Positions 31,084 to 55,615 are shown, counted from the stretch's first letter. The stretch is 64,000 nucleotides of DNA from an uncultured Leptospira sp. (GCA_964571605.1 CAZNCS010000001.1:4098-68097); one strand, 5' to 3'. A program made the numbers and translations. The notes: generated from the sequence alone by a model not told the origin.

Positions 31084-31755
31084 ATGGTCGAAAATTATGA
31101 GGGCAAACAATTTACTTTTCAGATAAACAGAATCGAGCTTAGTGGCGATTTATTTGTATCTGAGAACTCGAAATCTCTAGTAATTTTGGTTTTAGGAGAA
31201 AAAGAGGATAAGTTTTTAGATCGATTTAAAGGTTTAAAACTGGACCTGAATAAAAAAAACATAGCCACTCTTTTTTTGAAAGGATTACTAACTTCGGAAG
31301 AGAGGGAAGTTTCCGCAAATCGTTTGGACGAATCGCTTTTGGGCGACAGACTTGTTTCCGTAACACGTTTTCTTAGGACCTATTCAGAGACTAAAGACCA
31401 TAGAATTTCTTATTTGAGCTTATCCACCATAGCAGGAAGAATATTTCGTGCCGCATCTATCCTAATCGGCGAAGCGGAAAGTTTGATTCTAATTGGAAAC
31501 GGACTCCAACCTTTAAATTTCGTTTTTTGTAAAACTCCTATTTTGAATGTAGTTGGAGGTTTGGATTTCCGCGGTATCGAATCGAATAAGCTAGTCCTTT
31601 CCAAAATAGATGCACCCTTAAAAATAATCCATTCCATCCAAGGATCCCCGAGCAATTTTGAAGAAAAAGAAAAATGGTCTCTTGTTTCTTCTGCGATTCA
31701 GAAATGGTTTTCTTCTCCGACAACAAGAATGACCGACTTTACCTCGGAAGGCTGA
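31084..31755 (+). CDS. Degenerate dienelactone-hydrolase-like alpha/beta protein
   Basis: LSGDLFV, GLLTSEE, LGDRLVSVT, PILNVVGGLD; catalytic motifs are altered. Confidence 0.55.
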   Translation: MVENYEGKQFTFQINRIELSGDLFVSENSKSLVILVLGEKEDKFLDRFKGLKLDLNKKNIATLFLKGLLTSEEREVSANRLDESLLGDRLVSVTRFLRTYSETKDHRISYLSLSTIAGRIFRAASILIGEAESLILIGNGLQPLNFVFCKTPILNVVGGLDFRGIESNKLVLSKIDAPLKIIHSIQGSPSNFEEKEKWSLVSSAIQKWFSSPTTRMTDFTSEG

Positions 31756-32136: not shown

Positions 32137-34689
32137 TTAGAATTCGTTTTTAGAGAAGGAAAGGGTGGCGTGAAGTATATTCATTTTTCTGAATTCCCAG
32201 ATAAAACTGACGGTTAGGCCCAGTCCCAGTGAAATGAAAGTTTCTTGGAATCCGATCGGTTCCAGTCCGAACAATCGTAGAAGTAAACTATTATGGAAAA
32301 TTATAGTGATGATAAGAATCGTAAGCGCTAAAATCCAATAAATCGTATAATTATCCTTTGGTAATACTTTAAAAAAAGGTTTAGAGTAGGATAAATTGGA
32401 AAAAATCAGACCGAAATTGGAAGCGATTAGGAAAAGGAAACCAAGCGAACGTATTTTTTCATGGGTCCAAAGGGATTCTTTTCCAAAGAAATAAAGAGCC
32501 AATAATACGAATAGAACCGAGCCTCCTTGTAAAAGGCTGAGTAAAAAATTCTTTAGGCCGAGAAGATTTTCCGTTCTGGACCTGGGAGGGACACTGCCTA
32601 CCGCATTTTCAGCGGGTAATCCTTCGAATACTAAAGAGCAGGATGGATCTATAATTAATTCAAATAATAATACATGAGCAGGAAGAAGGAAAAGGGGATC
32701 TCCTGTAAACACAGGTAGAAGTGACATTCCGATAATAGGAATATGGACTGAAATTATATAAGATACGCTTTTCTTTATATTTTCGTAAATTTGCCTTCCT
32801 AATAGTATCGATTTCACTATGGAGGAAAAATTATCGTCTAAGAGCACCAAGTCGGAAGCCTCTCGGGCCACATCCGTTCCGCGTTTCCCCATAGAAATTC
32901 CGATATGCGCAGCTTGCAAAGCGAGAGCGTCATTGACGCCGTCTCCGGTCATCGCAACAGTCTCACCTTTACTTTGTAATCGTTTCACGATTTTTAATTT
33001 TTGGTGGGGACGAATTCTGGAAAATATATTTGCTTTTTCTAATTTATAATCCAACTCGGAATCGGAAAGATTCTGTAGTTCTGCTCCGGTGAGAATCGAA
33101 TCCGGGTGTTGCAATCCGATCTTTTTGGCGATTGCAGTAGCAGTTCCAGAATGGTCTCCGGTAATCATAACAACTTTGATTCCAGCTCGATTACAATCGG
33201 AAATGGCGGAAGGGACTGATTCTCGAATCGGATCTTCTAAAACGACCAGACCTAAAAATTCAAAATCTAAATCGTGCTGATCGCTTGGAAGGTTTTGGTT
33301 TTTTACAAATGATTTTGCAACTCCCAAAATTCTAAATCCTTCTAAGGCATATTCTTCAGTAATTTCGGTCCATTTTTCCATCTTTTCCGGAGAAAAATGA
33401 CAAAGATCGAAAATCGCTTCGGGAGCCCCTTTGGCTCCTACGAATATCTGGCCTGAATTTTCTTTAGAAAGCCAAGCATAACTTAAAGCCAAAAGTTTTT
33501 GAGTAAGCGGATATTCTTTTTCCAATTGCCAATTCGGATGGATATGTTCCGTCTTAGAAAGATATTGCAACCCGAGTTCTTGGATGGCTTTTTCCATCGG
33601 ATCATGAGGATCTTTTTGGGACGCGAGCACGGCGAATTCCAATAACGTATGAAATTTTTCAGGCATCTCTTTTAAATCCGAAGAGCAGTCCAAATATTCG
33701 TTCTCGTAAAATAACCCTTGTACCTTCATCTTGTTTTCGGTTAATGTGCCGGTTTTGTCGACGCATAAGACAGTAGCTGCTCCCAGAGTTTCGATTGCAC
33801 TTAACTCTCTGGTTAATACTCCGATTTTTGATATTCTCCAAGCTCCTAGAGAGAAGAATATACTCAATACGACAGGAAGTTCCTCCGGTATGACCGCCAT
33901 GGAAAAAGTAAGTCCTGCAAGCAAGGCCTGTAGCCAATTTCCAGAACGAAACCCCAAACCTAAAATCAGGAATATACATAGTAGTCCGGCGAAAAGTGAG
34001 AAGAGTAATGTAAAACGTTTGATTTCTAGTTGTAAGGGACTTTCCGAACTGGAAATACTTCCCAATTCTTTTCCGATCTTTCCGATTTCGGTGAAATTGC
34101 CTGTATTATTAACTTTGAAAATGCCTTCTCCGGATACGACCGTACTACCAGCGTAAAGACGATTTGAATTTTCGTTATGTATTTCTCCCAATTTTGAATA
34201 TTGTTTAGCTACACTAACGGATTCTCCTGTCAATAAGGACTCGTCTATATGTAGATTGAGAGAGGAAAGTAAAAATCCGTCGGCGGGAACCCTGTCTCCT
34301 TCTTTCACGAGTGCGATATCGTTTGGAACTACCTCTTTAGCGGAAATTTGCACCATCTTACCGTCACGAATTACTTTTGCGAGTAGAGGAGAGAGTTTTC
34401 TCAAAGAAGCCAACGCATTTTCGGATTTTCTTTTCTGGTAAATCGTAATGGATATTACAGCAATGACCGCGAAAGAAAGCATTGCTGCTTCTTCCAAATC
34501 GCCTAATAAAACATAAAGGAGACCGCAGGCAAGTAGTAGGAGCAACATCGGTTCTCCGAGTACGGCAATGGTCACCTTAAATAGGGAAGTTTTTCTGTTC
34601 TCAAGTTCGTTCGGACCGAATTTTGCAAATAACTTTAAAGCTTCTTCCGAGCTAAGTCCGGTCTGTAATTTATTTAGAGAGGTGTTCAT
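32137..34689 (-). CDS. Cation-translocating P-type ATPase (P2A/Ca2+-like)
   Basis: TGES, IPEELP, DKTGTLT, KGAPE, TGDH, GDGVND, FELIIDP. Confidence 0.9.
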   Translation of the reverse strand: MNTSLNKLQTGLSSEEALKLFAKFGPNELENRKTSLFKVTIAVLGEPMLLLLLACGLLYVLLGDLEEAAMLSFAVIAVISITIYQKRKSENALASLRKLSPLLAKVIRDGKMVQISAKEVVPNDIALVKEGDRVPADGFLLSSLNLHIDESLLTGESVSVAKQYSKLGEIHNENSNRLYAGSTVVSGEGIFKVNNTGNFTEIGKIGKELGSISSSESPLQLEIKRFTLLFSLFAGLLCIFLILGLGFRSGNWLQALLAGLTFSMAVIPEELPVVLSIFFSLGAWRISKIGVLTRELSAIETLGAATVLCVDKTGTLTENKMKVQGLFYENEYLDCSSDLKEMPEKFHTLLEFAVLASQKDPHDPMEKAIQELGLQYLSKTEHIHPNWQLEKEYPLTQKLLALSYAWLSKENSGQIFVGAKGAPEAIFDLCHFSPEKMEKWTEITEEYALEGFRILGVAKSFVKNQNLPSDQHDLDFEFLGLVVLEDPIRESVPSAISDCNRAGIKVVMITGDHSGTATAIAKKIGLQHPDSILTGAELQNLSDSELDYKLEKANIFSRIRPHQKLKIVKRLQSKGETVAMTGDGVNDALALQAAHIGISMGKRGTDVAREASDLVLLDDNFSSIVKSILLGRQIYENIKKSVSYIISVHIPIIGMSLLPVFTGDPLFLLPAHVLLFELIIDPSCSLVFEGLPAENAVGSVPPRSRTENLLGLKNFLLSLLQGGSVLFVLLALYFFGKESLWTHEKIRSLGFLFLIASNFGLIFSNLSYSKPFFKVLPKDNYTIYWILALTILIITIIFHNSLLLRLFGLEPIGFQETFISLGLGLTVSFIWEFRKMNILHATLSFSKNEF

Positions 34690-34735: not shown

Positions 34736-35491
34736 TCAATGGTGATGAGAGTGGACATGTTCTATATTCGAATCTATAGGATTTGTATGTTCACCGTGTT
34801 GGTGGCCGAATCTGAATGCGATCATTAGAATGGAAACTACGACGGCAAGTCCTCCGGCGATACGTATTATTTTTCCTTTAAATTTGGATAATATCGAAGT
34901 GAATCCGATTCCGAAGGCGAATAAGAGAGGGAAGGTTCCTAAAAAGAACGACACCATAATCGCCGATCCTAAAAGGGGAGATCCGCTTGCAAACGCAGTA
35001 ATAAATGCAGGGTATAGAATCCCACATGGTAATAAACCAGTAAGCAATCCGAAAGAAAAACCTAATATTACGATCCGATTTGATTTTAATGGTCCGCTTC
35101 TCAATTCGCCTAAAATCGGTTTTGCCAGTTTTCCCATCAACCTACCCAAATACATATTTGAGCCTGGGGATTTTCCAAAGAATAAATACAATCCCATAAC
35201 AGCGAGAAAGAAAATCCCGATCCAAGCGGCGATTTCTTGGAAGGGCAAAAGACGAGATAATACTATATTTGTGCCTTCCCCTAAAAAACCAAGTAAGAGT
35301 CCGATTAAGGAGTAAGAAAGAAGTCGCCCCGAATTATAAGAGAGTTGTAGGATCGAGTTTTTGGATTTCTCCGAAGGAGAAAGAAAAAGTGTGAGAGTCC
35401 CGGCAAGTGGGCCGCACATTCCGACACAATGTAAGGATCCCGTTAGTCCGTTTAAAAATGCGGCGCCAAATAAGGCAAAAGAGAGATCCAT
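34736..35491 (-). CDS. Sulfite exporter TauE/SafE-like (DsbD_2) cbb3-associated membrane protein
   Basis: SLHCVGMCGP, YNSGRLLSY, GLLPCG, His-rich tail. Confidence 0.85.
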   Translation of the reverse strand: MDLSFALFGAAFLNGLTGSLHCVGMCGPLAGTLTLFLSPSEKSKNSILQLSYNSGRLLSYSLIGLLLGFLGEGTNIVLSRLLPFQEIAAWIGIFFLAVMGLYLFFGKSPGSNMYLGRLMGKLAKPILGELRSGPLKSNRIVILGFSFGLLTGLLPCGILYPAFITAFASGSPLLGSAIMVSFFLGTFPLLFAFGIGFTSILSKFKGKIIRIAGGLAVVVSILMIAFRFGHQHGEHTNPIDSNIEHVHSHHH

Positions 35492-35650
35492 CTATTTGTC
35501 TTCCTTCGGATTTTCTTCTTCGAAAAGCATTCTATATTTCGGACCCTCGATATCGTCGTATTGGCCCGTTCGATAACTCTGTATAAAAACGTAAAACGCT
35601 CCGAAAGCGATCATAAGTGCTATCGGAATCATAAGATATAATGCGTTCAT
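35492..35650 (-). CDS. ccoS: cbb3 oxidase maturation protein CcoS (absent from the ORF track)
   Basis: Hand translation MNALYLMIPIALMIAFGAFYVFIQSYRTGQYDDIEGPKYRMLFEEENPKEDK*, with the GQYDD motif; ATGA overlap with ccoI. Confidence 0.92.
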   Translation of the reverse strand: MNALYLMIPIALMIAFGAFYVFIQSYRTGQYDDIEGPKYRMLFEEENPKEDK

Positions 35651-38091
35651 ATAGAGATCCTATTTTTCATGGAAATGGAATTTAGAACCACAGTGAGAGA
35701 ACTTAGAGTCATAAATCCAGCGCAAATTACAGGAAGCATAAGTCCGGAAGCAGCAAGAGGAATCATTATAGAATTATAAATAATGGAAAGAAAAACATTC
35801 TGTAGAATTATGGATCTGGTTTTTCGTGAAATGGCGATCGATTTTGGCAATGAATCCAATCGATTTTTAACCAGTACTACGTCGGAACGATCCAGAGATA
35901 GATCCGAGCCCATTCCCATTGAAATTCCCAAATTGGATTGTGCAATACAAACCGAGTCATTGATACCGTCTCCGACCATAACCACGGTTTCTCCTTTTTC
36001 CTGCGCTTGCTTGATCCGGTCTCTTTTTTGGATGGGTGAAAGGTCGGAAGAATACTCTGTAATACCTAACTCCTCGGCTAATGTGCGGACTTTATCGTAG
36101 GAATCTCCGGAAAGTATTTCTATGTTTGGAATGAATTTTTTAATTTTGCGAATACTTTCCTTCGCTTCTAATCTTGCCTTATCTCCGAATTCCCAAGCAG
36201 CTAAAGGGAGTCCATTCGCGGTCAAATAGATCCATCCGTCGTTAATTTCGTTCTGATCGATCGTAAAGTTTCGGTTTCCGATCTTATATAAAATGTCTGT
36301 CCCGTTTTTTGCTTCGATTCCTTTGCCCGGGATTTCTTTGATATAACTCCAATGTATACTGTCTTTTTTTGTTTTTGAATTTTGTTTCTCCTCATCCTCG
36401 GAAAGTGTACGAACGAAGGAGCGTGCAATCGGATGCGCGGAATATTTTTCTAAATTTATTCCCAAATTGCGATAATAGCTTATATTATTTTGGTCACCGA
36501 AATTTTTCTCGGATTTTAATTCCAATTTTCCGGAGGTCAATGTTCCCGTTTTGTCAAAAAAGATACGATTTGCTTTGGCAAGTATTTCAGCTGTTTCCGG
36601 GTTTTTGATTAGAACTCCTTCTTTGGATTGTATCCAGTGGCCTACAACTAAAGCGGCGGGAACACTTAGGCCTAATGCGCAGGGGCAGGCTACGATTAAA
36701 ACGCTGATCGTATTCAGGATTGCATTTTCTATGGAACCGAAGTACCACCAGAAAGAAAATGTTCCGAGAGCCACAACTAAAACGATTTCGATAAAAACAA
36801 CCGCCACTCGATCTGTAACTCTTTGGATTTTGGGTTTTGTCAAAAGAGAATCTTCCAATAGTCTTCCGATTTTTGCCAGAGTACTTTCTCTGGATGTTCC
36901 AAAGGATCTGATAGTAATATTACTGGAAAGACAGACAGATCCTGCTTTTACTTCTTCTCCTTTTGTCTTGCGGATCGGTTTACTTTCCCCGGTTAACACG
37001 GATTCGTCGAAGAAGGCTTCGGAATTTTCAATTTCACCGTCCACTGGCGCGCGACTTCCGTAAGATAAACCGATTATATCGTTTTTTTCGATCGAGGAAG
37101 TGGATCGTTTTTCCCAGGATTCGTTTCTTTTTACATCGTATTCCTCAGGGATTAAGGAAAGCAATTCTCCGATTTTCATTCCCGCCTTATAACGAATCAT
37201 AGCCTCCAGATATTTTCCTAAAAGTATGAAGAAGTAAATCGTGCAGACAGAATCGAAATACACTTCTCCATTTCCCGATATGGTGACGTAAATACTGTAA
37301 AAATACGCTAGAGCTACTCCTAAGAATAAAAGAGTATCCACGGAAAGAATATGACGTTTCCAGGATTCATATGCTCCTTTCCAAAATGGATAACCGGAGT
37401 AGAAAAAAACAGGGGTTGCTAATATCCAGGAAACATAATGGAAAAGATTTTTAATATTCAATTCCATTCCTTCGAAATACCCGGCATACAGGCTTGCGGA
37501 AAATAGCATGATATTCCCCCAACAAAACCCGGCCACCGTCATTCGAAACGCCAAATCTTTAAAAGGTTTTTCTACTTTTGATTCCGATTTTAAGGGAGAA
37601 TATAAACTGGGTTTATATCCAAGTTCTCGGATGGAATGAAAAATTTTTTCCAAGGAAACTTTTTGTGGATCGAAAACCAGTTTTAGTCTTCCTGTCCCGA
37701 AATTGATTCTCGCCTCTTGGACACCCGAAATTTTACTTGTGGCTGTTTCGATCAACCAGACACAAGCAGAACAGTGGATTCCGGAAACTGTAACGAACGT
37801 GCTCCCCATTCCATTCGGTAAATTTTCGACATATTCGGAATATACAGAAGTATTATCTATGTTCGTATCGGATTCGGCGATATTCTTTTCTAATTTGGTA
37901 GGACCTATAATTTGAGTCCCTCTGATTTGATAAAAATGATCTAATCCGCTCGTAAGTAATAAGGCGGATAAGGTTGCGCATCCATTGCAGCAGTACTCTC
38001 TTTGGATTCCATTATGATTCGTGAATACTGGTTTTTCATCTATTATGGAATTGCAATGAAAACAGACGGTTTTAATCTTAGAATCGTTCAA
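35647..38091 (-). CDS. ccoI: cbb3-associated Cu P1B-ATPase CcoI/FixI
   Basis: CFHC...CCNGC N-domain, HCSAC, CPC, DKTGTLT, GDGIND; position in the cco operon. Confidence 0.9.
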   Translation of the reverse strand: MNDSKIKTVCFHCNSIIDEKPVFTNHNGIQREYCCNGCATLSALLLTSGLDHFYQIRGTQIIGPTKLEKNIAESDTNIDNTSVYSEYVENLPNGMGSTFVTVSGIHCSACVWLIETATSKISGVQEARINFGTGRLKLVFDPQKVSLEKIFHSIRELGYKPSLYSPLKSESKVEKPFKDLAFRMTVAGFCWGNIMLFSASLYAGYFEGMELNIKNLFHYVSWILATPVFFYSGYPFWKGAYESWKRHILSVDTLLFLGVALAYFYSIYVTISGNGEVYFDSVCTIYFFILLGKYLEAMIRYKAGMKIGELLSLIPEEYDVKRNESWEKRSTSSIEKNDIIGLSYGSRAPVDGEIENSEAFFDESVLTGESKPIRKTKGEEVKAGSVCLSSNITIRSFGTSRESTLAKIGRLLEDSLLTKPKIQRVTDRVAVVFIEIVLVVALGTFSFWWYFGSIENAILNTISVLIVACPCALGLSVPAALVVGHWIQSKEGVLIKNPETAEILAKANRIFFDKTGTLTSGKLELKSEKNFGDQNNISYYRNLGINLEKYSAHPIARSFVRTLSEDEEKQNSKTKKDSIHWSYIKEIPGKGIEAKNGTDILYKIGNRNFTIDQNEINDGWIYLTANGLPLAAWEFGDKARLEAKESIRKIKKFIPNIEILSGDSYDKVRTLAEELGITEYSSDLSPIQKRDRIKQAQEKGETVVMVGDGINDSVCIAQSNLGISMGMGSDLSLDRSDVVLVKNRLDSLPKSIAISRKTRSIILQNVFLSIIYNSIMIPLAASGLMLPVICAGFMTLSSLTVVLNSISMKNRISI

Positions 38092-38579
38092 GGTTCGATC
38101 CGTATCTGTTTCGTTTTTTCCAACAAACCTTCCTTAGTTTTTGCTGAAATACTGATCCGCCAAGATCCCGAAAATGGAATTTCCAATTCGCCCGAATAAT
38201 TTCCTTTATCGATTTCTTTTAATAGAAGTGTTCGGTTGAAAGTGTCACTTGCACTTCTTTCTAGTTTAAGTTGAATTTGCGCGCCGGAGATCGATTCTTT
38301 TCCTTTCTGAAATCTTACGGATATATTCTGTTTACCCGGTTTGAGTGAGGTCGGCTGACTGAGCCAAGGTGTATGGAGTTCGTATCCCATCTTCACCATT
38401 TCACGTTGGGAAGCTACGGTTTGGTCGTATTTCAAACCTTTTTCGTAATAGTTTGAATCTACCGGAGGAGTATGACCTGCCACTGCGATTCGAACCGTAA
38501 CGAATGTCGCTGTAAATAGTAGCGCGAAGGTAATCCCGATTAGAACGAATGCTTGTTTAAGGCTTCTGTGCATGGGCAA
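38088..38579 (-). CDS. ccoH: FixH/CcoH family protein
   Basis: Single TM, VDSNYYEKGLKYDQ; lies between ccoG and ccoI. Confidence 0.8.
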   Translation of the reverse strand: MPMHRSLKQAFVLIGITFALLFTATFVTVRIAVAGHTPPVDSNYYEKGLKYDQTVASQREMVKMGYELHTPWLSQPTSLKPGKQNISVRFQKGKESISGAQIQLKLERSASDTFNRTLLLKEIDKGNYSGELEIPFSGSWRISISAKTKEGLLEKTKQIRIEP

Positions 38580-39936
38580 TCCTCGTATTATTTGTATTTT
38601 GTTTTTGAACCAAACTTAAGGGTAAAAGAAAAGGAATGTCGATTGATTTGTTGAAATTCGGATCTAGGATATCCGCTATTTTCAAACGAATCTCGTGACT
38701 TTTTTGAGTTATGTCTTCGGGAGTTGCATTTAACTCGATGAACAAACGATATCTTTTTTCGGAATTGCCGGGGAGTTCAACCGTTGCGTTGACGGTTCCT
38801 CCTACAAGTATTTTACGAATTCCTTTTAGATCGGTTTGCTCTATTTCAAAATGGAGAGTACGATCGATAACTGTCAGATTTTGCATTTGCACTTCGTAAA
38901 AATTTCTAACAATTCCTTCTTCCAAAACCTGAGGTTGGATATTTCTATCCGCGATAATCGATAGATACAAAGGTACTCGTTTCCATAAGAGAAGGCTTAG
39001 AACAGAAAGAACCAGAATAAGAGCGCTCGAATAAAGAATTGTTCTTGGGCGGATCCATTGGATTTTCGAATCTTTTTGTTCGATCTGATTTTCGGACCAA
39101 TATCCGATCAGAGTTTTTTTATTTTCTTTCGCCATTTGTTGAGTGCAGGCATCCGAACATTTTCCGCAGGCGATACATCCTACGTTAGTTCCCTCTCGGA
39201 TATCGATTCCTGTAGGACAAACGACCAAACACATATTGCAAGCGGTGCAATCTCCTATTTTTACCTTTTCCTTTCTTCTAGGTTCTCCTCTTTGGAAATC
39301 ATAAGTGATGTTTACTGAGTGAGCGTCCATCATCACAGTCTGAAAACGTGCATAAGGACATGCGTATTTGCAGAACTGCTCTCGGATAAAGGCGATATCC
39401 GCATACATGGCAAAGGTAAAGAAAGCGAGATATCCCGACCAACCGGGTATATTTCCGTTTGTTTTCAAATCCATTATGGAATCTATCATACGATGCGGAT
39501 CCGCAAAATATGAGACCCATGCAGATGAAGCAAGTAGGCTGACTAAGATCCAAGACAGATGAGTGGAAATTTTGGGAAATAAGGGCGCGTCTTTTTTACC
39601 GTATTTAGAACCTTGGAGGAATCTTCCGATTCCGTCGAAGATATCCGTATAGATCGTTTGCGGACAGCCCCAACCGCACCAGACTCTTCCGATTAACGTA
39701 GTGAAGAAGAATAAGGCCAAGCCCATTCCCATCAGAAATAAATGTAGAAAGTAACCTTCTTGGGGAGTGAAAATATTTCCTAAAAGAAAGAATTTTCTAT
39801 CCGGTATATCCAAGCGTATGAGAGGCATTCCGTTCCAACGGAACCAAGGAGTGACAAAAAAAACGAAAACGAGAATGGACTGCACGTAGTACCGTGCAGT
39901 TCTAATTTTACCGGAGATAGGTCGTGAAACGATCAT
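38557..39936 (-). CDS. ccoG: cbb3 accessory 4Fe-4S protein CcoG
   Basis: GRVWCGWGCPQT, FCKYACPYARFQ, CTACNMCLVVCP, CIACGKCSDAC. Confidence 0.95.
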   Translation of the reverse strand: MIVSRPISGKIRTARYYVQSILVFVFFVTPWFRWNGMPLIRLDIPDRKFFLLGNIFTPQEGYFLHLFLMGMGLALFFFTTLIGRVWCGWGCPQTIYTDIFDGIGRFLQGSKYGKKDAPLFPKISTHLSWILVSLLASSAWVSYFADPHRMIDSIMDLKTNGNIPGWSGYLAFFTFAMYADIAFIREQFCKYACPYARFQTVMMDAHSVNITYDFQRGEPRRKEKVKIGDCTACNMCLVVCPTGIDIREGTNVGCIACGKCSDACTQQMAKENKKTLIGYWSENQIEQKDSKIQWIRPRTILYSSALILVLSVLSLLLWKRVPLYLSIIADRNIQPQVLEEGIVRNFYEVQMQNLTVIDRTLHFEIEQTDLKGIRKILVGGTVNATVELPGNSEKRYRLFIELNATPEDITQKSHEIRLKIADILDPNFNKSIDIPFLLPLSLVQKQNTNNTRIAHAQKP

Positions 39937-39973
39937 TTTACATTCCTTCTTTTCACAACTTTTCTCCCTGCTA

Positions 39974-40507
39974 TCATTTTGAAGCCCGTATATCCGGATT
40001 TCGAGAAGCCAACCATGCTAATACTTGATAGACTTTTTCAGACCCAAGGCTCATCTCGTGGGGAGGCATAGGTCCTCTTCCTAATTTAGTTTTTTCGACC
40101 GAAACTCCTTTCATTACGGTTTCATAAAGTTTTCCATCGGTATTTCCATGTAGCCAATCTTTATCCATAAGATTCGGTCCTACTAAACCTTCTCCCGTCG
40201 GGCCGTGGCATGCTACACAATACGTTTGAAAGGTGGTCTGGCCTGCCGTGACGGCTTCAGGATTGTTTCTCATCGGGTTGGAGCCGTCGGAGGATTGAAC
40301 TGCGACATTTCGGTTTGGAAATTGTTCTTTGTATTCTTCTAGTTGTGCGGAATAATATTCCGAGGTTCCCCAATCGGAAAATCCGTGAAAGTATATCGGA
40401 TATATGATCGCAATTACGATAGAACCCAGGAACACCCATTTCCACCACGCAGGCAGCGGGTTTTCACCTTGTCGGATTCCATCAAATTCTTTATTTGGTT
40501 CGCTCAT
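39974..40507 (-). CDS. ccoP: cbb3 oxidase subunit III CcoP, single-heme form
   Basis: EFDGIRQGENPLPAWW N-terminus; one CVACH; GPNL; MPP. Confidence 0.9.
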   Translation of the reverse strand: MSEPNKEFDGIRQGENPLPAWWKWVFLGSIVIAIIYPIYFHGFSDWGTSEYYSAQLEEYKEQFPNRNVAVQSSDGSNPMRNNPEAVTAGQTTFQTYCVACHGPTGEGLVGPNLMDKDWLHGNTDGKLYETVMKGVSVEKTKLGRGPMPPHEMSLGSEKVYQVLAWLASRNPDIRASK

Positions 40508-40511
40508 AAAA

Positions 40512-40658
40512 TCAATCCTCCTCTAACATTCTATATTTGGGTTTTTCCATTCTGTCTTTCCGCGAACGACGATATACATAAAGGAAAATAATCGAAATTG
40601 CGATCATCATGATCGGCAAACGAAGTGATTTATAAATTTGTAAAGTATCTAGATCCAA
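40512..40658 (-). CDS. ccoQ: cbb3 oxidase subunit CcoQ (absent from the ORF track)
   Basis: TTG start after a GAGGA RBS; MDLDTLQIYKSLRLPIMMIAISIIFLYVYRRSRKDRMEKPKYRMLEED*; lies between ccoO and ccoP. Confidence 0.88.
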   Translation of the reverse strand: MDLDTLQIYKSLRLPIMMIAISIIFLYVYRRSRKDRMEKPKYRMLEED

Positions 40659-40668
40659 AGTTCGTTCC

Positions 40669-41358
40669 TCATTGTAGACTTTTTGCGAGTTCCGCTCCGT
40701 CTCTTCCTAATTTGAGAAGATAGGCGATGAGAGCGTCGCCCTCAGTTTTGCCGGAAACAAGAGAGGCGACCGCTTCGATCTCCGCGTCTGAGTATGGAAC
40801 GCCGACTTTTCTAAGACCTTTCATATGATCCGCTATTTTAGTCGGATCCAATAAGGCGGATTCTGCAAAGAGCCAAGGATAGGACGGCATGATAGAACCT
40901 TTGGCGGTATCTCTTGGATTGATTAAATGTGTCTTATGCCACTCCGCGGAAGGTTGGATCTGGGACTCATGAGCCAGATCCGGTCCTGTCCGTTTAGAAC
41001 CCCAAAGAAAAGGATGATCATACACATATTCTCCCGCTTTGGAATACCCGTCTTTACCGTAGGATTGTTGGGGATCGAAACGATCTACTTCCCATTTGAA
41101 AGGGCGAATCATTTGGGTGTGACAGTTATTACATCCTTCTTTTTGATAAATATCCCTTCCTGCCAATTCTAACGCGTTATACGGCTTTGTTCCTGATATT
41201 GGCTCCGCGGTTTTGGTAAGAAAGAACGGCGGAATGAGTTCGAAAATTCCTCCGATTAGAATCGCTACCATCGTATATAGAGTGAATTTAACTCCGTTTT
41301 TTTCCCATTGGTCCGTAAATCCGGAGAACCAATCCAATAATTTGTCGAACCAATTCAT
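40669..41358 (-). CDS. ccoO: cbb3 oxidase subunit II CcoO
   Basis: ELAGRDIYQKEGCNNCHTQMIRP, WGSKRTGPDLA, MPSYPWL. Confidence 0.96.
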   Translation of the reverse strand: MNWFDKLLDWFSGFTDQWEKNGVKFTLYTMVAILIGGIFELIPPFFLTKTAEPISGTKPYNALELAGRDIYQKEGCNNCHTQMIRPFKWEVDRFDPQQSYGKDGYSKAGEYVYDHPFLWGSKRTGPDLAHESQIQPSAEWHKTHLINPRDTAKGSIMPSYPWLFAESALLDPTKIADHMKGLRKVGVPYSDAEIEAVASLVSGKTEGDALIAYLLKLGRDGAELAKSLQ

Positions 41359-42794
41359 ACTGTATTTACCTCTTTGTTCCCGACTCTTAAGTCGATCTCT
41401 TTGAAACCGGAACCAGATGTAGTCATCGTACGAATCAGGTTATAAATCATTACGATTAAACCTACGAAGTAGAGACCACCTCCGATCGCTCGAAACAATC
41501 GATACGGTTTTAATGTTTCAGTGATTTGAACCCAGTTTGGATATTTAAGTGCACCGGTTTCGTCTATCGCTCTCCACATAGCTCCTTCTGTGATACCGGA
41601 AACCCACATGGAAACTATATAGAGTAGGATTCCAAGTGTAGCTATCCAGAAGTGAATATTGGCTAATTTTTCCGAATATAGATTTGTGTTCCACATTCTG
41701 GGAACAAGATAGTATAGAACCGCAAAGGACATCATTCCAACCCAACCAAGTGTTCCGCCGTGAACGTGTCCGATAATCCAATCTGTATTATGGCCAAGCG
41801 CGCTGATCGATCTAAAGGAGAGTAACGGACCTTCGAACGTCGCCATACCGTAGAAGGTAATCCCGACCAATAACATTTTTAAGGTCGCGTCCGTTTTGAT
41901 TTTCTCTTTGGCCTGTGTAAGTGTCAAAAACCCGTTTAACATTCCTCCCCAAGAAGGCATCCATAACATGATACTGAATACTACGCCGGTAGTTTGTAGC
42001 CAATCGGGAAGAGGAGAATAAAGCAAGTGGTGAGGACCTGCCCAAATATAGAGGAAAATCAAACTCCAAAAATGGATAATCGATAATCTATGGCTGTAAA
42101 TCGGCTGTTTGATATGTTTGGGAAGATAATAATACATTAGTCCCAAGAACGGGGTAGTAAGTACGAATGCCACTGCGTTATGGCCGTACCACCATTGGAT
42201 ATTCGCGTCGTATACACCCGAATACACTGAGTAAGACTTAATCCAACTTACCGGAACGGAAAGATTATTAACAATGAATAGAATAGGGATCGTTACCCAA
42301 GACGCGATATAGAACCAAATTGCCGCATAGAGTTGTTTCTCTTGTCTGGTGAAAATGGTTCCAAAATAGTTGATAATGAAAATTACGAACCAAATTACGA
42401 TCAGCAAATCCAAAGGCCATTCGAGTTCGGCATATTCTTTAGATTGATTCATTCCAAGCGGTAGTGTGATCGCCGCTAAAATGATTGTTAGATTGTAGAG
42501 TACGAAATGTAATTTCGCAAGTTTATCGCTCCAAATGCGAACTCTACAAAGCCTTTGTACAGTGTGATATCCGGTCGCAAAGATGATGCTTAATGCGAAT
42601 CCGAAAATAGCTGCATTAGTATGCAATGGGCGAAGCCGGCCGAAAGTGAAATACGGTCCGATATTTAATTGCGGATAAACCATCTGAAAGGCAATCCAAA
42701 CTCCAACTAGCATGGAAGCAACGCCCCAAACTAAAGCCGAAAGTAGGAAACCTTTGACGATTCCGTCGTTGTATTTTTGTTCTAAAGAACTCAT
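41355..42794 (-). CDS. ccoN: cbb3 oxidase subunit I CcoN
   Basis: FGRLRPLHTN, WWYGHNAVAF, WAGPHHL, IIGHVH. Confidence 0.97.
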   Translation of the reverse strand: MSSLEQKYNDGIVKGFLLSALVWGVASMLVGVWIAFQMVYPQLNIGPYFTFGRLRPLHTNAAIFGFALSIIFATGYHTVQRLCRVRIWSDKLAKLHFVLYNLTIILAAITLPLGMNQSKEYAELEWPLDLLIVIWFVIFIINYFGTIFTRQEKQLYAAIWFYIASWVTIPILFIVNNLSVPVSWIKSYSVYSGVYDANIQWWYGHNAVAFVLTTPFLGLMYYYLPKHIKQPIYSHRLSIIHFWSLIFLYIWAGPHHLLYSPLPDWLQTTGVVFSIMLWMPSWGGMLNGFLTLTQAKEKIKTDATLKMLLVGITFYGMATFEGPLLSFRSISALGHNTDWIIGHVHGGTLGWVGMMSFAVLYYLVPRMWNTNLYSEKLANIHFWIATLGILLYIVSMWVSGITEGAMWRAIDETGALKYPNWVQITETLKPYRLFRAIGGGLYFVGLIVMIYNLIRTMTTSGSGFKEIDLRVGNKEVNTV

Positions 42795-48542: not shown

Positions 48543-48788
48543 ATGAAAGGAACTATCGCTGGTATCAACGAAAAGGATAGCAAAATCATTATACATACCG
48601 AGTTCGGATATACGTTCGGAGTTGGAAACGTGAATTATATGCAAATCAATCATGTAGTGGATGGAGATCTTAGAAGTAACGGGACCGAAATACTCACCAA
48701 TCTTACCTCAGGAGACGATTTTATATTGGATATAGAAGCCTATGATTGTTCGCAAGAAACGGCTCTTTTATTACTCCACGATAAATAA
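48543..48788 (+). CDS. Small hypothetical protein (81 aa)
   Basis: Strong RBS GGGGAGGA, beta-rich protein-like sequence, downstream terminator. Confidence 0.7.
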   Translation: MKGTIAGINEKDSKIIIHTEFGYTFGVGNVNYMQINHVVDGDLRSNGTEILTNLTSGDDFILDIEAYDCSQETALLLLHDK

Positions 48789-50540: not shown

Positions 50541-51383
50541 CTATGTCCGAACTCGCGCAAGGATTGTGCCGTTTCGCTCATTTGCTGCAGTTTCTCTGCG
50601 CAAAACAGTGGGGGAATGACCGAATCTGTCCCTAAATCGAACTGCAAACCGAGAAGCGGATTCGTACCCTACTTCTTTTGCGATTTCTCCAATGGATAAA
50701 TCCGTGGCTTGTAACAAGGATAAGGCGAAGGACATTCTTACATCGATCAAAAGTTCCGAGAAAGAAATTTGTTCTCCCGCTAATTTTCTCCGTAAAGTCG
50801 CTTCGCTCATTTCCAAATGGTCTGCGATATGCGCAGCCGACCAATCCTTTGCAGGAGAAGCGGTCAAAAGAGAACGAACTTTTTGTGCGGTTTTATGAGG
50901 GGAGGCGAGTTTGAATTTTTTTCCGAATTCTCCCAGCCAAAGTAGAGTTTCACCTACTCGATGTATGGCGACAGACTCCGGAATACTTTTGCTGGTTGTA
51001 ATCGAATCGATTGCCGTTTGAAAAGTATCCGCAAATCCCGATTTCAATTCGGAAAGATGAAACGCAGTATCGACTGCGGAAAGATGTTCCTGCTGTGATG
51101 CCAAACTTTGGATTACACTCGGATAGAATGCGATCCATACTGCTTCAAAATCTTCTTTATTCGGACGGTTGACAACATCGAAGGATTGGCCCCCCGCAAT
51201 TGCAACAGCTTCGCCTTCATGAATCACAAATTCCAAGTCGCCCCGTTTGAGAGTTTTTGTACCTTTTCTGACAAAGACCAGGGTGGGCAATTCGGAGACT
51301 ACTCTCGCTAAGTAGAATTCTCGTTTCTGGATGACTTTTGCGGTTATGCCGACTCCGTCTTTTGTAACAATGGCTCGTTTCAT
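50541..51383 (-). CDS. AraC family regulator (YbcM-like)
   Basis: MSEATLRRKL and VGYESASRFAVRFRDRFG; ATG 51383 preferred. Confidence 0.9.
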   Translation of the reverse strand: MKRAIVTKDGVGITAKVIQKREFYLARVVSELPTLVFVRKGTKTLKRGDLEFVIHEGEAVAIAGGQSFDVVNRPNKEDFEAVWIAFYPSVIQSLASQQEHLSAVDTAFHLSELKSGFADTFQTAIDSITTSKSIPESVAIHRVGETLLWLGEFGKKFKLASPHKTAQKVRSLLTASPAKDWSAAHIADHLEMSEATLRRKLAGEQISFSELLIDVRMSFALSLLQATDLSIGEIAKEVGYESASRFAVRFRDRFGHSPTVLRRETAANERNGTILARVRT

Positions 51384-51981
51384 AAAACCTTCCGGCAAGT
51401 ATGGGGCTTAGACTCTAGCAGCCGGGGACTTTGGCAAGATTTTTGGTCTTCCTACAAACGGATATAAGGCCGTTTTAGCTCGAGAAGTTCGACCCAAATC
51501 GTAAATATAAACTCAAAAAAAATGACCAATATACTGGATAATTTCCTCGAGGAAAGATTTGGGATGCAAATTGTAAAATAGAAATCGCGGAATGGAATTT
51601 GCCTTCTCACGCATTTTGCGCGGACGATAGACGGTTTACCAAATTCGGAAAATTTTCTAAACGGGAACTACCTTACAGTTTACAAATCGGTCGTTTCATT
51701 TATTGGAGGAATCGATTCACTCGCTTGGAATCGAATCAAAAAAGAATTTCTTTTATATGCTTGGAATCTAATACAATCCTGAATCGAGAGTTCGATTCTT
51801 GTTTCGAATCCGAGTACGTTTTAAACCGGATATTTGAATTGTGTAATATATTGGAAAACATGACAGTATATTGTGCATTCGGAATTCTTGAAGTAATACG
51901 TGTTTCGGTATAAACATTCGTCTTCCGAGGCGTAAAATTCGATACAAGATAGGTCGAACAAAAGTTTAAGGAGACTCGCTC

Positions 51982-52923
51982 ATGGCTGATAACGGCCCAA
52001 TACAACATTCTCTCGGAGATAAATCCGCACGCCAACTTGCAAATACTACTAAAACTTCCGCACAATACGGACTCATAACACCTCGCTGGTTGGTGCGTTT
52101 ATTGGATTGGAAACCATTGGAGTCCGGAACTCTCAGAGTGAACCGGGTAAAAGACAATACTAAGGTGGATGTTCTTTGCGGACAAAAGGACGAACAAGCT
52201 CTACCGGAAACTTTCGTGGATTACGAAGAAAAACCGAGAGAATATACATTAAGTGCGATTTCTACCGTTCTTGACGTTCATACACGTGTTTCCGATCTGT
52301 TCAGCACTCCACATGACCAAATTCGCGAACAACTTCGTCTTACGATCGAAAGTGTAAAAGAACGCCAAGAAAACGAACTCATTAATAACGATGATTACGG
52401 ACTTTTGAAAAACGTTCCCAAAGGACAAAGAATCCAAACTAGAAAAGGCGCTCCCACTCCGGATGATCTGGACGGGCTCATTTCTAAAGTTTGGAAAGAA
52501 CCTTCTTTTTTCTTAGCTCATCCTCTTGCTGTTGCCGCTTTTGGTAGAGAATGTACTCGTAGAGGGGTTCCTCCGGCTACGGTCTCTTTATTCGGTGCTC
52601 AATTTTTGACTTGGAGAGGTTTACCGATCATACCTACCGATAAACTTTTGGTGGGAGGAGAGTCGGATCCGAAAGATCTCGGTGGAAGTACAAATATTCT
52701 TCTTCTGAGAGTCGGAGAAAAAAAACAAGGTGTGGTAGGTCTCTACCAACCGGGATTACCGGGAGAGCAGACGCCTGGACTATCCGTTCGTTTTATGGGG
52801 ATCAATCGTTCTGCGATCGGATCCTATCTTATCTCGTTGTACTGTTCCGCAGCCGTACTCACCGACGACGCAATCGGAGTATTGGAGAATGTGGACGTAG
52901 GCAACTACTATGACTACAAGTGA
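51982..52923 (+). CDS. Family 2A encapsulin nanocompartment shell protein (SrpI-like)
   Basis: SARQLANTTKTSAQ..ITPRWL, YEEKPREYTLS, HTRVSDLFSTPHDQIREQLRLTIE, GAPTPDDLD, WRGLPIIP, GLSVRFMGI; RBS AAGGAG; 313 aa with no cNMP insertion. Confidence 0.93.
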   Translation: MADNGPIQHSLGDKSARQLANTTKTSAQYGLITPRWLVRLLDWKPLESGTLRVNRVKDNTKVDVLCGQKDEQALPETFVDYEEKPREYTLSAISTVLDVHTRVSDLFSTPHDQIREQLRLTIESVKERQENELINNDDYGLLKNVPKGQRIQTRKGAPTPDDLDGLISKVWKEPSFFLAHPLAVAAFGRECTRRGVPPATVSLFGAQFLTWRGLPIIPTDKLLVGGESDPKDLGGSTNILLLRVGEKKQGVVGLYQPGLPGEQTPGLSVRFMGINRSAIGSYLISLYCSAAVLTDDAIGVLENVDVGNYYDYK

Positions 52924-54631
52924 TTCCTTTCCTATAAATCCGGGAGATTTTTCCGCTCCCGGTTTAGGTGGGGGACAGGCACCGATAGATCCGAGTCTGA
53001 TCGCGGATTTGGCTAAAGAATTTTTCGGTTCTCTTCCCACCGGTTCGAGTGTGGATGAATTGGTTCTTTCGAATTCGCAGATATCTTCCAAACCGACGCA
53101 GCCTTTGGCTTCTTCTTCCGTGGAAAATTTTTCCAAGTCTTCCACTTCCGATTCGGGATGGAATGTATCCGGGACGGATTACCAAAGAGTTTCGGATGAA
53201 TTTTTATCAGGTTCAAATTTGCCTTCTTATCCAGGGGGATTAACAGCTCCTGGATTTTCGAGTTTGGGAAAATCAGCATCTTCCTCTTTTTCTTTTTTAG
53301 AAGAAGGTAGAACATTTTTTCCAGAAACGAGCGGAGTTCAAATCACGGATCCTTTTAGTTTTAGTCCGAGTCTTGTTCCCTCCGTAGAACTTTCGTCCGG
53401 AAATTTTGACCTGGGTTCCGTGCGTAGGGATTTCCCTATTTTGCAGGAAAAAGTAAACGGAAGAGATCTGGTTTGGTTGGATAATGCGGCCACTACCCAT
53501 AAACCCCAGGCAGTGATCGATCGCCTTTCTTATTTTTACCAACACGAAAATTCTAATATTCATAGGGGAGCTCATACTCTCGCCGCAAGAGCGACTGACG
53601 CATATGAAGCGGCTCGGGAGAAGGTGAAACAATTTTTAAACGCATCTTCCACCGAGGAAATCGTTTTCGTGAGAGGAGCCACTGAGGCGATCAATTTGGT
53701 CGCTCAGACTTGGGGTAGGAAGAATATAGGGAAAGACGATGAAATTCTAATCACCTGGTTGGAACATCACGCGAATATCGTACCTTGGCAAATGCTTTGT
53801 GCCGAAAAAGGAGCCAAATTGAAAGTGGTGCCGGTGGATGAAACCGGGCAGATCATTTTGAGCGAGTACGAAAGACTTTTAACTCCACGCACTCGATTGG
53901 TATCTTTTACCCAAGTTTCGAATGCGCTCGGAACCGTGACACCTTTCCAAACTATGGTGGAACAAGCGCATAGAGCTGGTGCCAAGGTTCTGGTCGACGG
54001 AGCCCAGGCAGTTTCGCATATGCAAGTAGATGTACAATCCATCGATTGTGATTTTTACGTTTTTTCCGGGCATAAGGTATTCGCTCCCACCGGTATCGGA
54101 GTTCTTTTCGGCAAAAAGGAAGTGTTAGATACAATGCCTCCGTGGCAAGGCGGAGGAAACATGATAGAAGATGTAACCTTCGAAAAAACCGTTTACCAAC
54201 AGGCTCCTTTTCGATTCGAAGCTGGTACCGGAAATATTGCGGACGCGGTGGGTTTGGGTGCGGCGATCGATTATCTGAATAAAATCGGAATGAATCGAAT
54301 TGCAGAGTACGAACATTCCTTACTAGAATATGGGACCAAACAATTATCAAGAGTACCAGGACTTAGAATGATCGGAACCGCAAAAGAAAAAGCGGGAGTA
54401 TTGTCCTTTGTTTTGGATGGATTCAAAACGGAAGAAGTGGGAAGGTATTTGGCTCAAGAAGGAATCGCAGTGCGTTCCGGACACCATTGCGCTCAACCAA
54501 TTCTCCGACGTTTTGGATTGGAAAGTACGGTTCGTCCTTCTTTGGCTCTATACAATACTTGCGAGGATATAGACGCGCTTATTAACGCTCTTTTTGATTT
54601 GCAAGGAGGCAGAATTTCAGGTCCTCTTTGA
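52910..54631 (+). CDS. SufS-type cysteine desulfurase with a disordered N-terminal encapsulin-targeting extension
   Basis: About 165-aa Ser/Gly/Pro-rich extension containing DLAKEFF; LDNAAT, SGHK (PLP Lys), RSGHHCAQP (catalytic Cys); overlaps the shell gene. Confidence 0.93.
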   Translation: MTTSDSFPINPGDFSAPGLGGGQAPIDPSLIADLAKEFFGSLPTGSSVDELVLSNSQISSKPTQPLASSSVENFSKSSTSDSGWNVSGTDYQRVSDEFLSGSNLPSYPGGLTAPGFSSLGKSASSSFSFLEEGRTFFPETSGVQITDPFSFSPSLVPSVELSSGNFDLGSVRRDFPILQEKVNGRDLVWLDNAATTHKPQAVIDRLSYFYQHENSNIHRGAHTLAARATDAYEAAREKVKQFLNASSTEEIVFVRGATEAINLVAQTWGRKNIGKDDEILITWLEHHANIVPWQMLCAEKGAKLKVVPVDETGQIILSEYERLLTPRTRLVSFTQVSNALGTVTPFQTMVEQAHRAGAKVLVDGAQAVSHMQVDVQSIDCDFYVFSGHKVFAPTGIGVLFGKKEVLDTMPPWQGGGNMIEDVTFEKTVYQQAPFRFEAGTGNIADAVGLGAAIDYLNKIGMNRIAEYEHSLLEYGTKQLSRVPGLRMIGTAKEKAGVLSFVLDGFKTEEVGRYLAQEGIAVRSGHHCAQPILRRFGLESTVRPSLALYNTCEDIDALINALFDLQGGRISGPL

Positions 54632-54638
54632 GTGTGAA

Positions 54639-54674
54639 TTTTGTATCCGGTTCTTTTCCGAGCCGGGTACAAAA
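54639..54674. terminator. Bidirectional terminator
   Basis: TTTTGTATCCGGTTC...GAGCCGGGTACAAAA between convergent genes. Confidence 0.7.
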
Positions 54675-54703
54675 TAAATTTACTAGTTTTAAAGTTTGAG
54701 ATT

Positions 54704-55615
54704 TTAAATCGAAAAATCGATTACATTATCCAATTCTTTGGAATTACGCACCCGAACTTCGTTTTTCTGATAAACGACGGAATAAGGGGGAACACTTTGA
54801 GTCAGCCACGCGTTTCCTCCTATAATACTGTTTCTTCCGATCACTGTATCTCCGCCTAGGATGGTCGCTCCCGCATAGATGATTACATTCTCTTCGATTG
54901 TAGGATGGCGTTTTATGCTGGCTAAATTTTTACTTACGGACAAAGCACCTAGAGTCACACCCTGATAAATTTTTACGTTATCAGCGATAATAGAAGTCCC
55001 CCCAATTACGATTCCGGTTCCGTGATCCATAAAAAAGGATCTTCCGATTTTAGCAGCAGGATGAATATCGATCCCAGTTTTTTCATGAGCGTATTCGCTT
55101 AACATTCTTGGGAAAATAGGAACATACAAACTATGTAATACATGTGCGACTCTATGTACTGCGATTGCATAAAATCCAGAATATGCTAGAATCACTTCTT
55201 TTACACTTTCCGCCGCAGGATCACCTTCGTAAGCAGCAATTGCGTCCTGCCAAATCGATTCGTACAAAAAAGGAAGTTGTTCTTGGAATTGAGTGAGAAC
55301 TTCATTTGTATTCAATTGGGAAGCCGAATCGGGACTACCGATTAAATACGGCTGTAATTTTTTCTTCGAATCCAAAAGAAATCGGGAAATACTATCTTCT
55401 ACTTGCGTTTTGTCTCGGAATGTAAGGTCGGAAAAAAAACCTGCGAATAGGATATCGAATAAGTCCCGGATAAAATCACCGGCGACCTGTCTGCCTCCGT
55501 AACGATGCGGGTCCTCATTCTGCTTTTCGTAAATGGATTCCAGAAATTGATCGTACTTCTCGGGTGAGGTTTGGTGTTTGGAGAGATTTCCGTTTGATTC
55601 GAACGAATTTGCCAA
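54704..55615 (-). CDS. cysE: Serine O-acetyltransferase (CysE, long SrpH/EpsC type)
   Basis: GDPAAES, YSGFYAIAVHRVAH, TGIDIHPAA, DHGTGIVIG, YQGVTLG, KRHPT; C-terminal IDFSI. Confidence 0.93.
   Translation of the reverse strand: MANSFESNGNLSKHQTSPEKYDQFLESIYEKQNEDPHRYGGRQVAGDFIRDLFDILFAGFFSDLTFRDKTQVEDSISRFLLDSKKKLQPYLIGSPDSASQLNTNEVLTQFQEQLPFLYESIWQDAIAAYEGDPAAESVKEVILAYSGFYAIAVHRVAHVLHSLYVPIFPRMLSEYAHEKTGIDIHPAAKIGRSFFMDHGTGIVIGGTSIIADNVKIYQGVTLGALSVSKNLASIKRHPTIEENVIIYAGATILGGDTVIGRNSIIGGNAWLTQSVPPYSVVYQKNEVRVRNSKELDNVIDFSI

Follow-up and report, generated by a model that had tools for sequence, protein, structure and literature searches.

What does an encapsulin shell gene contribute to a spirochaete in which it overlaps a desulfurase gene and is followed by a convergent serine acetyltransferase (SAT) gene? 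This question is raised by a 64,000-nucleotide (nt) stretch of DNA from an uncultured Leptospira sp. (GCA_964571605.1 CAZNCS010000001.1:4098-68097), hereafter the window, in which the three genes occupy positions 51982-55615. The locus very probably encodes a family 2A (SrpI/MMP-I type) encapsulin shell, a coupled desulfurase that serves as its cargo, and an adjacent CysE-type SAT; its proposed role in sulfur storage is one that we infer from homology to studied systems. The original prediction for this DNA, made from its sequence, placed in a spirochaete a family 2A encapsulin that has a desulfurase as cargo and a SAT gene close by, and both curated models and synteny agree with it. The background it treated as established likewise agrees with the primary papers on loading motifs (Nichols et al. 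2021) and on elemental sulfur (S0) storage and operon make-up (Benisch et al. 2024).

The same prediction regarded the host lineage as notable. Leptospira is not a new host, because NCBI annotation already labels orthologues in dozens of Leptospira species as "family 2A encapsulin nanocompartment shell protein", and a 2026 mBio review lists the genus among those with a family 2A cysteine desulfurase (CD) encapsulin. A catalogue of 1462 CD-encapsulin operons spans 11 phyla and four operon types (Benisch et al. 2024, PMC10836720). The locus is an uncharacterised example of a known and already annotated family 2A system with a genus-specific gene arrangement. It carries little weight as an encapsulin discovery, since the family, the cargo, the loading domain and the sulfur-storing activity have all been published. 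What is new here is that the three genes move as a unit, the type of SAT involved, a shortened loading domain in saprophytes, and an empty site in L. interrogans.

The assignment of the shell protein is carried by profiles and by solved structures. It scores 523.6 bits against the encapsulin equivalog NF041162 (cutoff 380), with residues 11-312 covering profile positions 1-295 of 295, and PF19307 (SrpI-like) is its sole Pfam match (E 1.5e-107). Full-length alignments with few gaps and ~75% identity were obtained with S. elongatus SrpI (6x8m; E 2e-139) and the A. baumannii shell (8t6r; E 1.7e-137), and the mycobacterial MMP-I chains 8wol and 8won align end to end (E ~4e-124). By homology to 6x8m and 8t6r, the protomer is predicted to have the HK97-type fold. 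Family 2B encapsulins (9bje, 9bhu) share a homologous HK97-type core with it (PDB E 1e-83 to 1e-89) but differ in carrying a cyclic nucleotide (cNMP)-binding domain and in length (~450-475 residues there, 313 here), and the cargo here is a desulfurase. The Pfam and NCBIfam profile search found no cNMP-binding insertion in the 313-residue protein, and the family 2B model NF041163 matches it only over profile positions 209-449 of 450, the C-terminal half. The closest shell proteins, 92-94% identical, belong to "intermediate" (P2) Leptospira (L. johnsonii, L. semungkisensis, L. haakeii and L. licerasiae); an identical shell protein has no record in the contig index.

The shell also contains an 8-residue loop (GGESDPKDL region; window positions 52651-52677, residues ~224-232). 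It is absent from the solved SrpI and from the sampled proteobacterial shells, and is common to acidobacterial, cyanobacterial and Spirochaetia shells from metagenome-assembled genomes (MAGs); many environmental shells have it. Among the related loci that we retrieved (numbered with the prefix L), two contigs of the same "Candidatus Acidiferrales" MAG (L017 and L018) each bear a shell-desulfurase pair with identical spacing, which could be either two copies in one genome or a duplicate from assembly or binning.

The second gene encodes a desulfurase of the kind associated with encapsulins. It exceeds the cutoff of the encapsulin-cargo model NF041166 (859.3 bits; cutoff 800), matches PF00266 (E 4.7e-150), and remains below the cutoff of the SufS equivalog NF006791 (522.4 versus 661). 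Residues 165-567 align to the closest solved desulfurase, PDB chain 8kg1 (E 9e-181), with both the SGHK and the GHHCAQP motifs in register; this chain may be the M. smegmatis cargo, the PDB table giving no organism. As originally predicted, the shell gene overlaps the desulfurase gene, and does so by 14 nt (ATGACTACAAGTGA). The same 14-nt overlap is present in gene calls or reconstructions of open reading frames (ORFs) from the P1, P2, S1 and "Mane" Leptospira loci, and the two genes are probably translationally coupled.

The catalytic domain is preceded by a long extension that matched no profile or solved structure over residues 1-165, where NF041166 and the PDB chains stop short. Its combined content of serine, proline, glycine and threonine is 48.5%, versus 22.5% in the catalytic domain, and with this composition taken as a proxy the extension is predicted to be disordered. 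The N-terminus with IADLAKEFFGSLP and FSFLEE that had been described from the sequence as disordered is present. The frequency of the first motif was assessed in the N-termini of 81 encapsulin-linked desulfurases from the retrieved loci. A relaxed form of it occurs in 64 of them (13/13 Leptospira and 51/68 others), against a mean of 0.44 and a maximum of 4 in 200 shuffles. The consensus outside Leptospira is PAVLAR[ML]ANEFFTALP, to which DPSLIADLAKEFFGSLP corresponds in the window, and the second motif, FSFLEE(G), resembles FPFLDEIR and YYFLDQ in other N-termini. Because of the shuffle statistics, the shared consensus and these counterparts of motif 2, we regard the motifs as homologous to the published ones, LARLANEFFS and AASPYYFLDG, of SrpI-associated desulfurases (Nichols et al. 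2021, PMC8049743).

The S. elongatus PCC 7942 SrpI system (6x8m, PMC8049743) likewise has a desulfurase cargo with a disordered N-terminal domain, and its two motifs have LIADLAKEFFGS and SSSFSFLEEG as counterparts here. It differs in the length of this domain (~225 residues there, 165 here), in lacking the 8-residue shell loop and in having no convergent SAT. The loading domain of the A. baumannii cargo is also ~225 residues long. In the M. smegmatis Mmp1/Enc-CD system (8wol, 8won; Tang et al. 2024, PMC11659603) the disordered N-terminal region, at 155 residues, is similar to that in the window; the set of loading-domain motifs is different, the context is actinobacterial and no adjacent SAT has been reported. 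The prediction had described loading as proceeding through LxxLANEFF-like motifs. The presence of such a motif is not notable by itself, as published work shows that the whole N-terminal domain loads the cargo: AASPYYFLDG alone was insufficient in S. elongatus (Nichols et al. 2021, PMC8049743), and three M. smegmatis motifs, tested singly, were each insufficient (Tang et al. 2024, PMC11659603).

Within Leptospira the length of the desulfurase varies, from 523 to 573 residues within P2 and down to 507 in the gene call of L. meyeri (S1). The desulfurases of S1 saprophytes (L082:8923-10446, L004 and L005) have a deletion of ~60 residues between the two motifs, which leaves an N-terminal domain of ~100 residues. 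There is thus a natural series of loading domains, from ~100 to 165 residues with both motifs kept, that could guide the design of a minimal tag.

The third gene encodes a long-form SAT, which passes the EpsC-type model NF041874 (155.6 bits; cutoff 150) and falls below the cutoff of the cysE model TIGR01172 (163.5 bits; cutoff 210.65). In alignments with solved SATs (E 4e-59) its GIDIHP and DHGTG motifs are in register, and it is predicted to have the left-handed beta-helix catalytic domain with conserved active-site motifs. The convergent orientation and the IDFSI ending had both been pointed out before, together with the use of the terminal Ile for CysK binding; the ending is there, and the C-terminal Ile of SAT is a documented anchor in the CysK active site (PMC9547175). 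The terminus DF(S/T)I is shared without exception by 13 Leptospira loci, Turneriella and a Leptospiraceae MAG. The nearest relatives outside Leptospira (54-70% identity) are from Turneriella and other Leptospiraceae, and those of T. parva (L087) and of the MAG (L088) have no encapsulin nearby and still end in IDFSI.

The co-directional acetyltransferases of proteobacterial encapsulin operons appear to be of another kind. We sampled ten from Pseudomonas, Azotobacter, Azomonas, Methylobacillus and Serratia loci, a set that does not include A. baumannii itself, and nine of them end without Ile, so they are probably unable to dock into CysK. Since the standalone relatives share IDFSI and the proteobacterial operon enzymes mostly lack the Ile, the Leptospira SAT looks like the resident CysK-binding-type CysE of the lineage, linked to the shell-cargo pair, rather than a dedicated operon acetyltransferase. 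For the idea of a sulfur circuit this cuts both ways, the linkage being conserved and the enzyme not specialised. The mostly Ile-less termini of the co-directional enzymes (L063, L069, L070, L072, L073, L075, L077 and L078) include …GNAG, …THQ and …NER, and DW(Q/V)I is the ending of the divergent SATs from Planctomycetes and Hydrogenedentes. We rejected the possibility that the SAT is a second cargo, since it lacks any LxxLAxEFF-type motif and the desulfurase is the sole cargo in Benisch et al. 2024 (PMC10836720).

P2 (L081, L089, L090 and L091), low-virulence P1 species (L. adleri, L084-86; L. ellisii, L002), S1 (L. meyeri, L082/83; L. abararensis, L004) and Leptospira sp. "Mane" (L001) all have the order shell, desulfurase and inverted SAT, together with the 14-nt overlap. 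The flanks of the trio are ThiM-PEBP-AraC and FadL in P2, a PAS kinase and an ABC-F protein in S1, and a PAS kinase and HxlR-SDR-katE-ank-Fur/PerR in P1. Both flanks have changed independently at least three times, with the trio kept each time, and since it is conserved across clades despite unrelated surroundings, it appears to move as a unit; within the genus, the SAT seems to be in a fixed physical linkage with the shell-cargo pair. In protein clusters, from which the distribution across Leptospira was taken, shell and SAT orthologues occur in the same clades: S1, S2, P2 and low-virulence P1 (adleri, kmetyi, stimsonii, yasudae, barantonii, ellisii and tipperaryensis). Both lists of orthologues lack L. 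interrogans, L. borgpetersenii and their relatives; KatE of L. interrogans-group species was readily retrieved from the same database (86%). The closest relative, on a metagenome contig (L090; 94% shell identity), has genes for a rhodanese-domain protein, an NmrA protein and a methyltransferase inserted upstream and lacks the AraC gene. This 271-residue rhodanese-domain protein (L090:355-1170) is unrelated and lies 3.8 kb away on the other strand.

Beyond Leptospira, a SAT gene lies within ~6 kb of the shell gene in 20 of the 80 loci examined around related shells. Ten proteobacterial loci have it upstream and co-directional, five from Planctomycetes and Hydrogenedentes have it upstream and divergent, and in 4 Leptospira loci and one Phycisphaerae MAG it is downstream and convergent. 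The canonical upstream, co-directional position was not found in Leptospira, where the SAT is downstream and convergent in all loci. The acetyltransferase partner of CD encapsulins has thus been recruited independently, in different orientations and from different types of SAT, which bears on what it does for the compartment. The operon of A. baumannii 118362 (8t6r, PMC10836720) has the order rhodanese-acetyltransferase-encapsulin-CD and resembles the window in cargo type and in its SAT partner, but it contains a rhodanese, and its SAT is upstream and co-transcribed rather than downstream and convergent.

Such operons may include both a rhodanese and an acetyltransferase, and a rhodanese occurs in only ~50% of those catalogued (Benisch et al. 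2024, PMC10836720). No match to PF00581 (Rhodanese) was found in any ORF of at least 90 codons within the window, nor any rhodanese within ~8 kb of the trio in L081-L086. The absence noted in the original prediction is therefore real, but at that frequency it is unremarkable.

In L. interrogans the corresponding site is empty (L092:11447-11849, compared with L085:4772-13103 of L. adleri). There perR-ank-katE is followed, after 403 nt, by a full-length orthologue (75% identity) of the PAS kinase that in L. adleri sits on the far side of the encapsulin module. A tblastn search of the L. interrogans site found no remnant of shell, cargo, SAT, HxlR or SDR, the SDR-HxlR-SAT-desulfurase-shell block being missing as a whole. 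Because the module is present in all other clades, the few genomes compared are explained most parsimoniously if the highly virulent group lost it. In L. mayottensis (L093) the sequence beyond katE has been rearranged and contains many transposase fragments. Being missing from the site in L. interrogans, the module is a candidate marker that could separate environmental from host-adapted lifestyles; saprophytes of the genus are genetically tractable. A fuller scenario would have the encapsulin-desulfurase pair joined tail to tail to the CysK-binding CysE of the lineage as a three-gene sulfur reserve for nutrient-poor water, kept by saprophytic, intermediate and low-virulence species and deleted in one block with the HxlR and SDR genes next to katE-perR toward the highly virulent L. 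interrogans group, with the junction providing antisense coupling of cysteine synthesis and breakdown. We consider this scenario speculative and, taken as a whole, rather doubtful.

The junction between the convergent genes differs from species to species. In the window, the 72-nt gap holds a 16-bp hairpin with a folding energy of -27 kcal/mol on the plus strand (z -5.5) and -15.5 kcal/mol on the minus strand (z -3.2). It is a possible bidirectional terminator; it has no clean U-tract, and the terminator scan of the window did not flag it. The gaps of L. adleri, L. ellisii and "Mane" contain different, non-homologous inverted repeats, that of L. licerasiae (36 nt) has no evident inverted repeat or hairpin, that of S1 species is 1 nt, and in L090 the 3' ends of the desulfurase and SAT genes share 4 nt (L090:7527-7530). 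Of the shared terminator that had been proposed, the hairpin is real and its conservation is not, the element being specific to the window. The accompanying claim that the SAT has its own promoter holds in so far as the orientation of the gene alone requires one; the consensus promoter scan detected no promoter-like site on the SAT strand, and neither the promoter nor the terminator scan gave more matches than shuffled sequence did.

Across P2, conservation upstream of the shell gene is confined to a pair of AT-rich palindromes, which have the same position in all P2 alignments. Palindromes of this type, CCAATATA(T/C)TGG, cluster in the intergenic region between the AraC and shell genes. Their TAATATAY core, of which the whole window has only 8 copies on both strands, also precedes the shell gene in "Mane" and in P1, where the position of the palindromes is again conserved; two P2 species (L081 and L091) have a related element ~90 nt upstream of their SAT gene. 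AATATATTG with up to one mismatch is not enriched in the window (41 matches versus 30.9 +/- 7.1 in shuffles). Only the clustering and the conserved position upstream of the shell gene are suggestive, and we regard the palindromes as a candidate promoter or operator that may be a -10 region or an operator in common. Rfam gave no match in the whole window (gathering thresholds) or in the 583-nt upstream gap (E up to 1), and hence no known riboswitch or leader. The same gap carries short repeats, GGAATCGA(A/T)TC and GCTTGGAATC(G/T)AAT, at 51708-51810, which are specific to the window and not conserved in other P2. The divergent AraC-family gene (PF12833, E 1.5e-18) is present in L081, L089 and L091 and absent from L090 and from the P1 and S1 loci; it was rejected as a dedicated regulator because it occurs in some P2 loci only, and is probably not part of the system.

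By analogy with the S. elongatus, A. baumannii and M. smegmatis homologues, sixty shell subunits would assemble into a T=1 compartment of ~24 nm and hold the desulfurase dimer inside, anchored by its N-terminal domain. Cysteine would enter the shell and be converted to alanine, and the abstracted sulfur would build up inside as protected elemental sulfur or polysulfide, probably under sulfur limitation, a condition in which expression would be expected to rise. For A. baumannii there is direct evidence of S0 storage (Benisch et al. 2024, PMC10836720). The SAT probably supplies O-acetylserine for cysteine that feeds the store or is regenerated from it, since its gene is locked to the shell-cargo pair and moves, and is missing, together with it.

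Several points weigh against this explanation. The AlphaFold2 model of the shell, built from a 33-sequence alignment, has a mean pLDDT of 42 and a pTM of 0.38, and because it is too poor, we base the shell fold on sequence identity. Even in the model systems, contact of a particular motif with the shell is putative. The SAT gene is transcribed convergently and therefore not co-transcribed with shell and cargo. There is no rhodanese or CysK nearby to complete a circuit, no CysK Pfam domain having been found in any ORF of at least 90 codons within the window. Relatives of the SAT outside the genus stand without an adjacent encapsulin, so adjacency may not mean dedication. Finally, the sequencing runs that contain the window sequence are groundwater metagenomes, of DNA only.

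The most serious alternative, one that we hold to be possible without favouring it, accepts the shell-desulfurase pair as genuine and takes the SAT for the housekeeping CysE of the lineage, a neighbour by chance with no dedicated role in the compartment. The encapsulin-free SATs of T. parva and of the Leptospiraceae MAG with the same tail, the separate transcription unit, and the scarcity of a terminal Ile among the proteobacterial partners, which sets the Leptospira enzyme apart, all fit this explanation. Chance adjacency accounts poorly for a trio that stays together while both of its flanks change and that is missing as a block from the L. interrogans site, and CD encapsulins of other phyla repeatedly have a SAT as partner, in three different orientations.

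It is unlikely that redox protection is the main role, with the shell shielding the catalytic cysteine and confining reactive sulfide or persulfide during oxidative stress. The M. smegmatis shell has been reported to protect its cargo against oxidation (PMC11659603), and katE, an ankyrin gene and a gene for a Fur/PerR-family regulator are neighbours of the L. adleri module. This neighbourhood is specific to P1, however, and the P2 and S1 contexts are unrelated to oxidative stress; sulfur accumulation, moreover, was directly observed in A. baumannii (PMC10836720), and the storage and redox roles are not exclusive.

A third explanation, which we find less probable still, is that the tail-to-tail layout is regulatory, with transcriptional interference or antisense control alternating SAT and desulfurase and so avoiding a futile cycle, instead of a cooperative make-and-store arrangement. 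Taken by itself, the convergent and sometimes overlapping layout could equally reflect antagonistic expression or a "make-and-store" circuit. Interference would suit the 1-nt gap of S1, the gene overlap of the closest relative and the inconstant hairpin, and a common regulator would fit with the similar AT-rich element that precedes both units in some P2. Against it, the acetyltransferase and the shell-cargo pair of A. baumannii are co-induced ~10-fold under sulfur limitation (PMC10836720), and the strong hairpin of the window would restrict read-through. A leftover prophage capsid gene beside an ordinary SufS for Fe-S cluster assembly, a reading prompted by the capsid fold common to encapsulins and by a desulfurase match to the SufS subfamily model TIGR01979, is effectively refuted by the profile scores (above cutoff for the encapsulin equivalog and NF041166, below it for NF006791) and the solved-structure matches, there being also no phage genes nearby, no adjacent suf genes, and a conserved loading domain and gene overlap. 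The features of the proposed family 2A system are collected in Table 1.

Table 1. Positions of the shell, desulfurase and SAT genes and of associated elements, counted from the first letter of the window unless a retrieved locus (L) is named.
Feature	Position	Strand	Basis or remark
AraC-family regulator, divergent	50541..51398	-	PF12833
Third palindrome copy	51526-51537		AraC-shell intergenic region
Two AT-rich palindromes, GTAATATATTGG and ACAGTATATTGT	51843..51874 (51843-51854, 51863-51874)	+	~110-140 nt upstream of shell ATG
Palindrome-type elements in relatives	L081:7874, 7895, 11663; L091:4875, 8660		
AAGGAG ribosome-binding site	51968-51973	+	precedes shell gene
Family 2A encapsulin shell protein, 313 residues	51982..52923	+	NF041162, PF19307, solved-shell matches
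Overlap of shell stop and desulfurase start, 14 nt, ATGACTACAAGTGA	52910..52923	+	sequence
Desulfurase ORF, 573 residues	52910-54631	+	NF041166, PF00266
Predicted disordered N-terminal cargo-loading domain, residues 1-165	52910..53404	+	composition, motifs; outside profile and PDB coverage
Loading motif 1, IADLAKEFFGSLP, desulfurase residues 31-43	53000-53038	+	sequence
Loading motif 2, FSFLEE, desulfurase residues 127-132	53288-53305	+	sequence
SufS-type (class II) catalytic domain	53405..54631	+	NF041166, PF00266, 8kg1
Pyridoxal phosphate (PLP)-lysine motif SGHK	54065-54076	+	aligned to 8kg1
Catalytic-cysteine motif GHHCAQP	54479-54499	+	aligned to 8kg1
16-bp hairpin in the 72-nt gap between convergent genes	54639..54674	.	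folding energy
Long-form serine O-acetyltransferase (SAT), convergent, 303 residues, TTG start	54704..55615	-	NF041874, motifs
SAT C-terminal IDFSI (...NVIDFSI)	54707-54721	-	sequence

Elsewhere in the window, an 81-residue ORF without a Pfam match lies at 48543-48788; such a gene is called in all four P2 loci (L081:5822, L089:1706, L090:25 and L091:2744), on differing sides of thiM. Three other ORFs, at 22749-23303 (184 residues), 23628-25622 (664 residues) and 31084-31755 (223 residues), had no Pfam match at E 1e-4 or better. Positions 34736-42794 hold a cbb3-type cytochrome oxidase cluster (CcoN, CcoO and a CcoP-like protein) with FixG, FixH, a metal-binding P-type ATPase and a DsbD_2 protein, and three further P-type ATPases are encoded at 8518-10845, 20111-22720 and 32137-34689.

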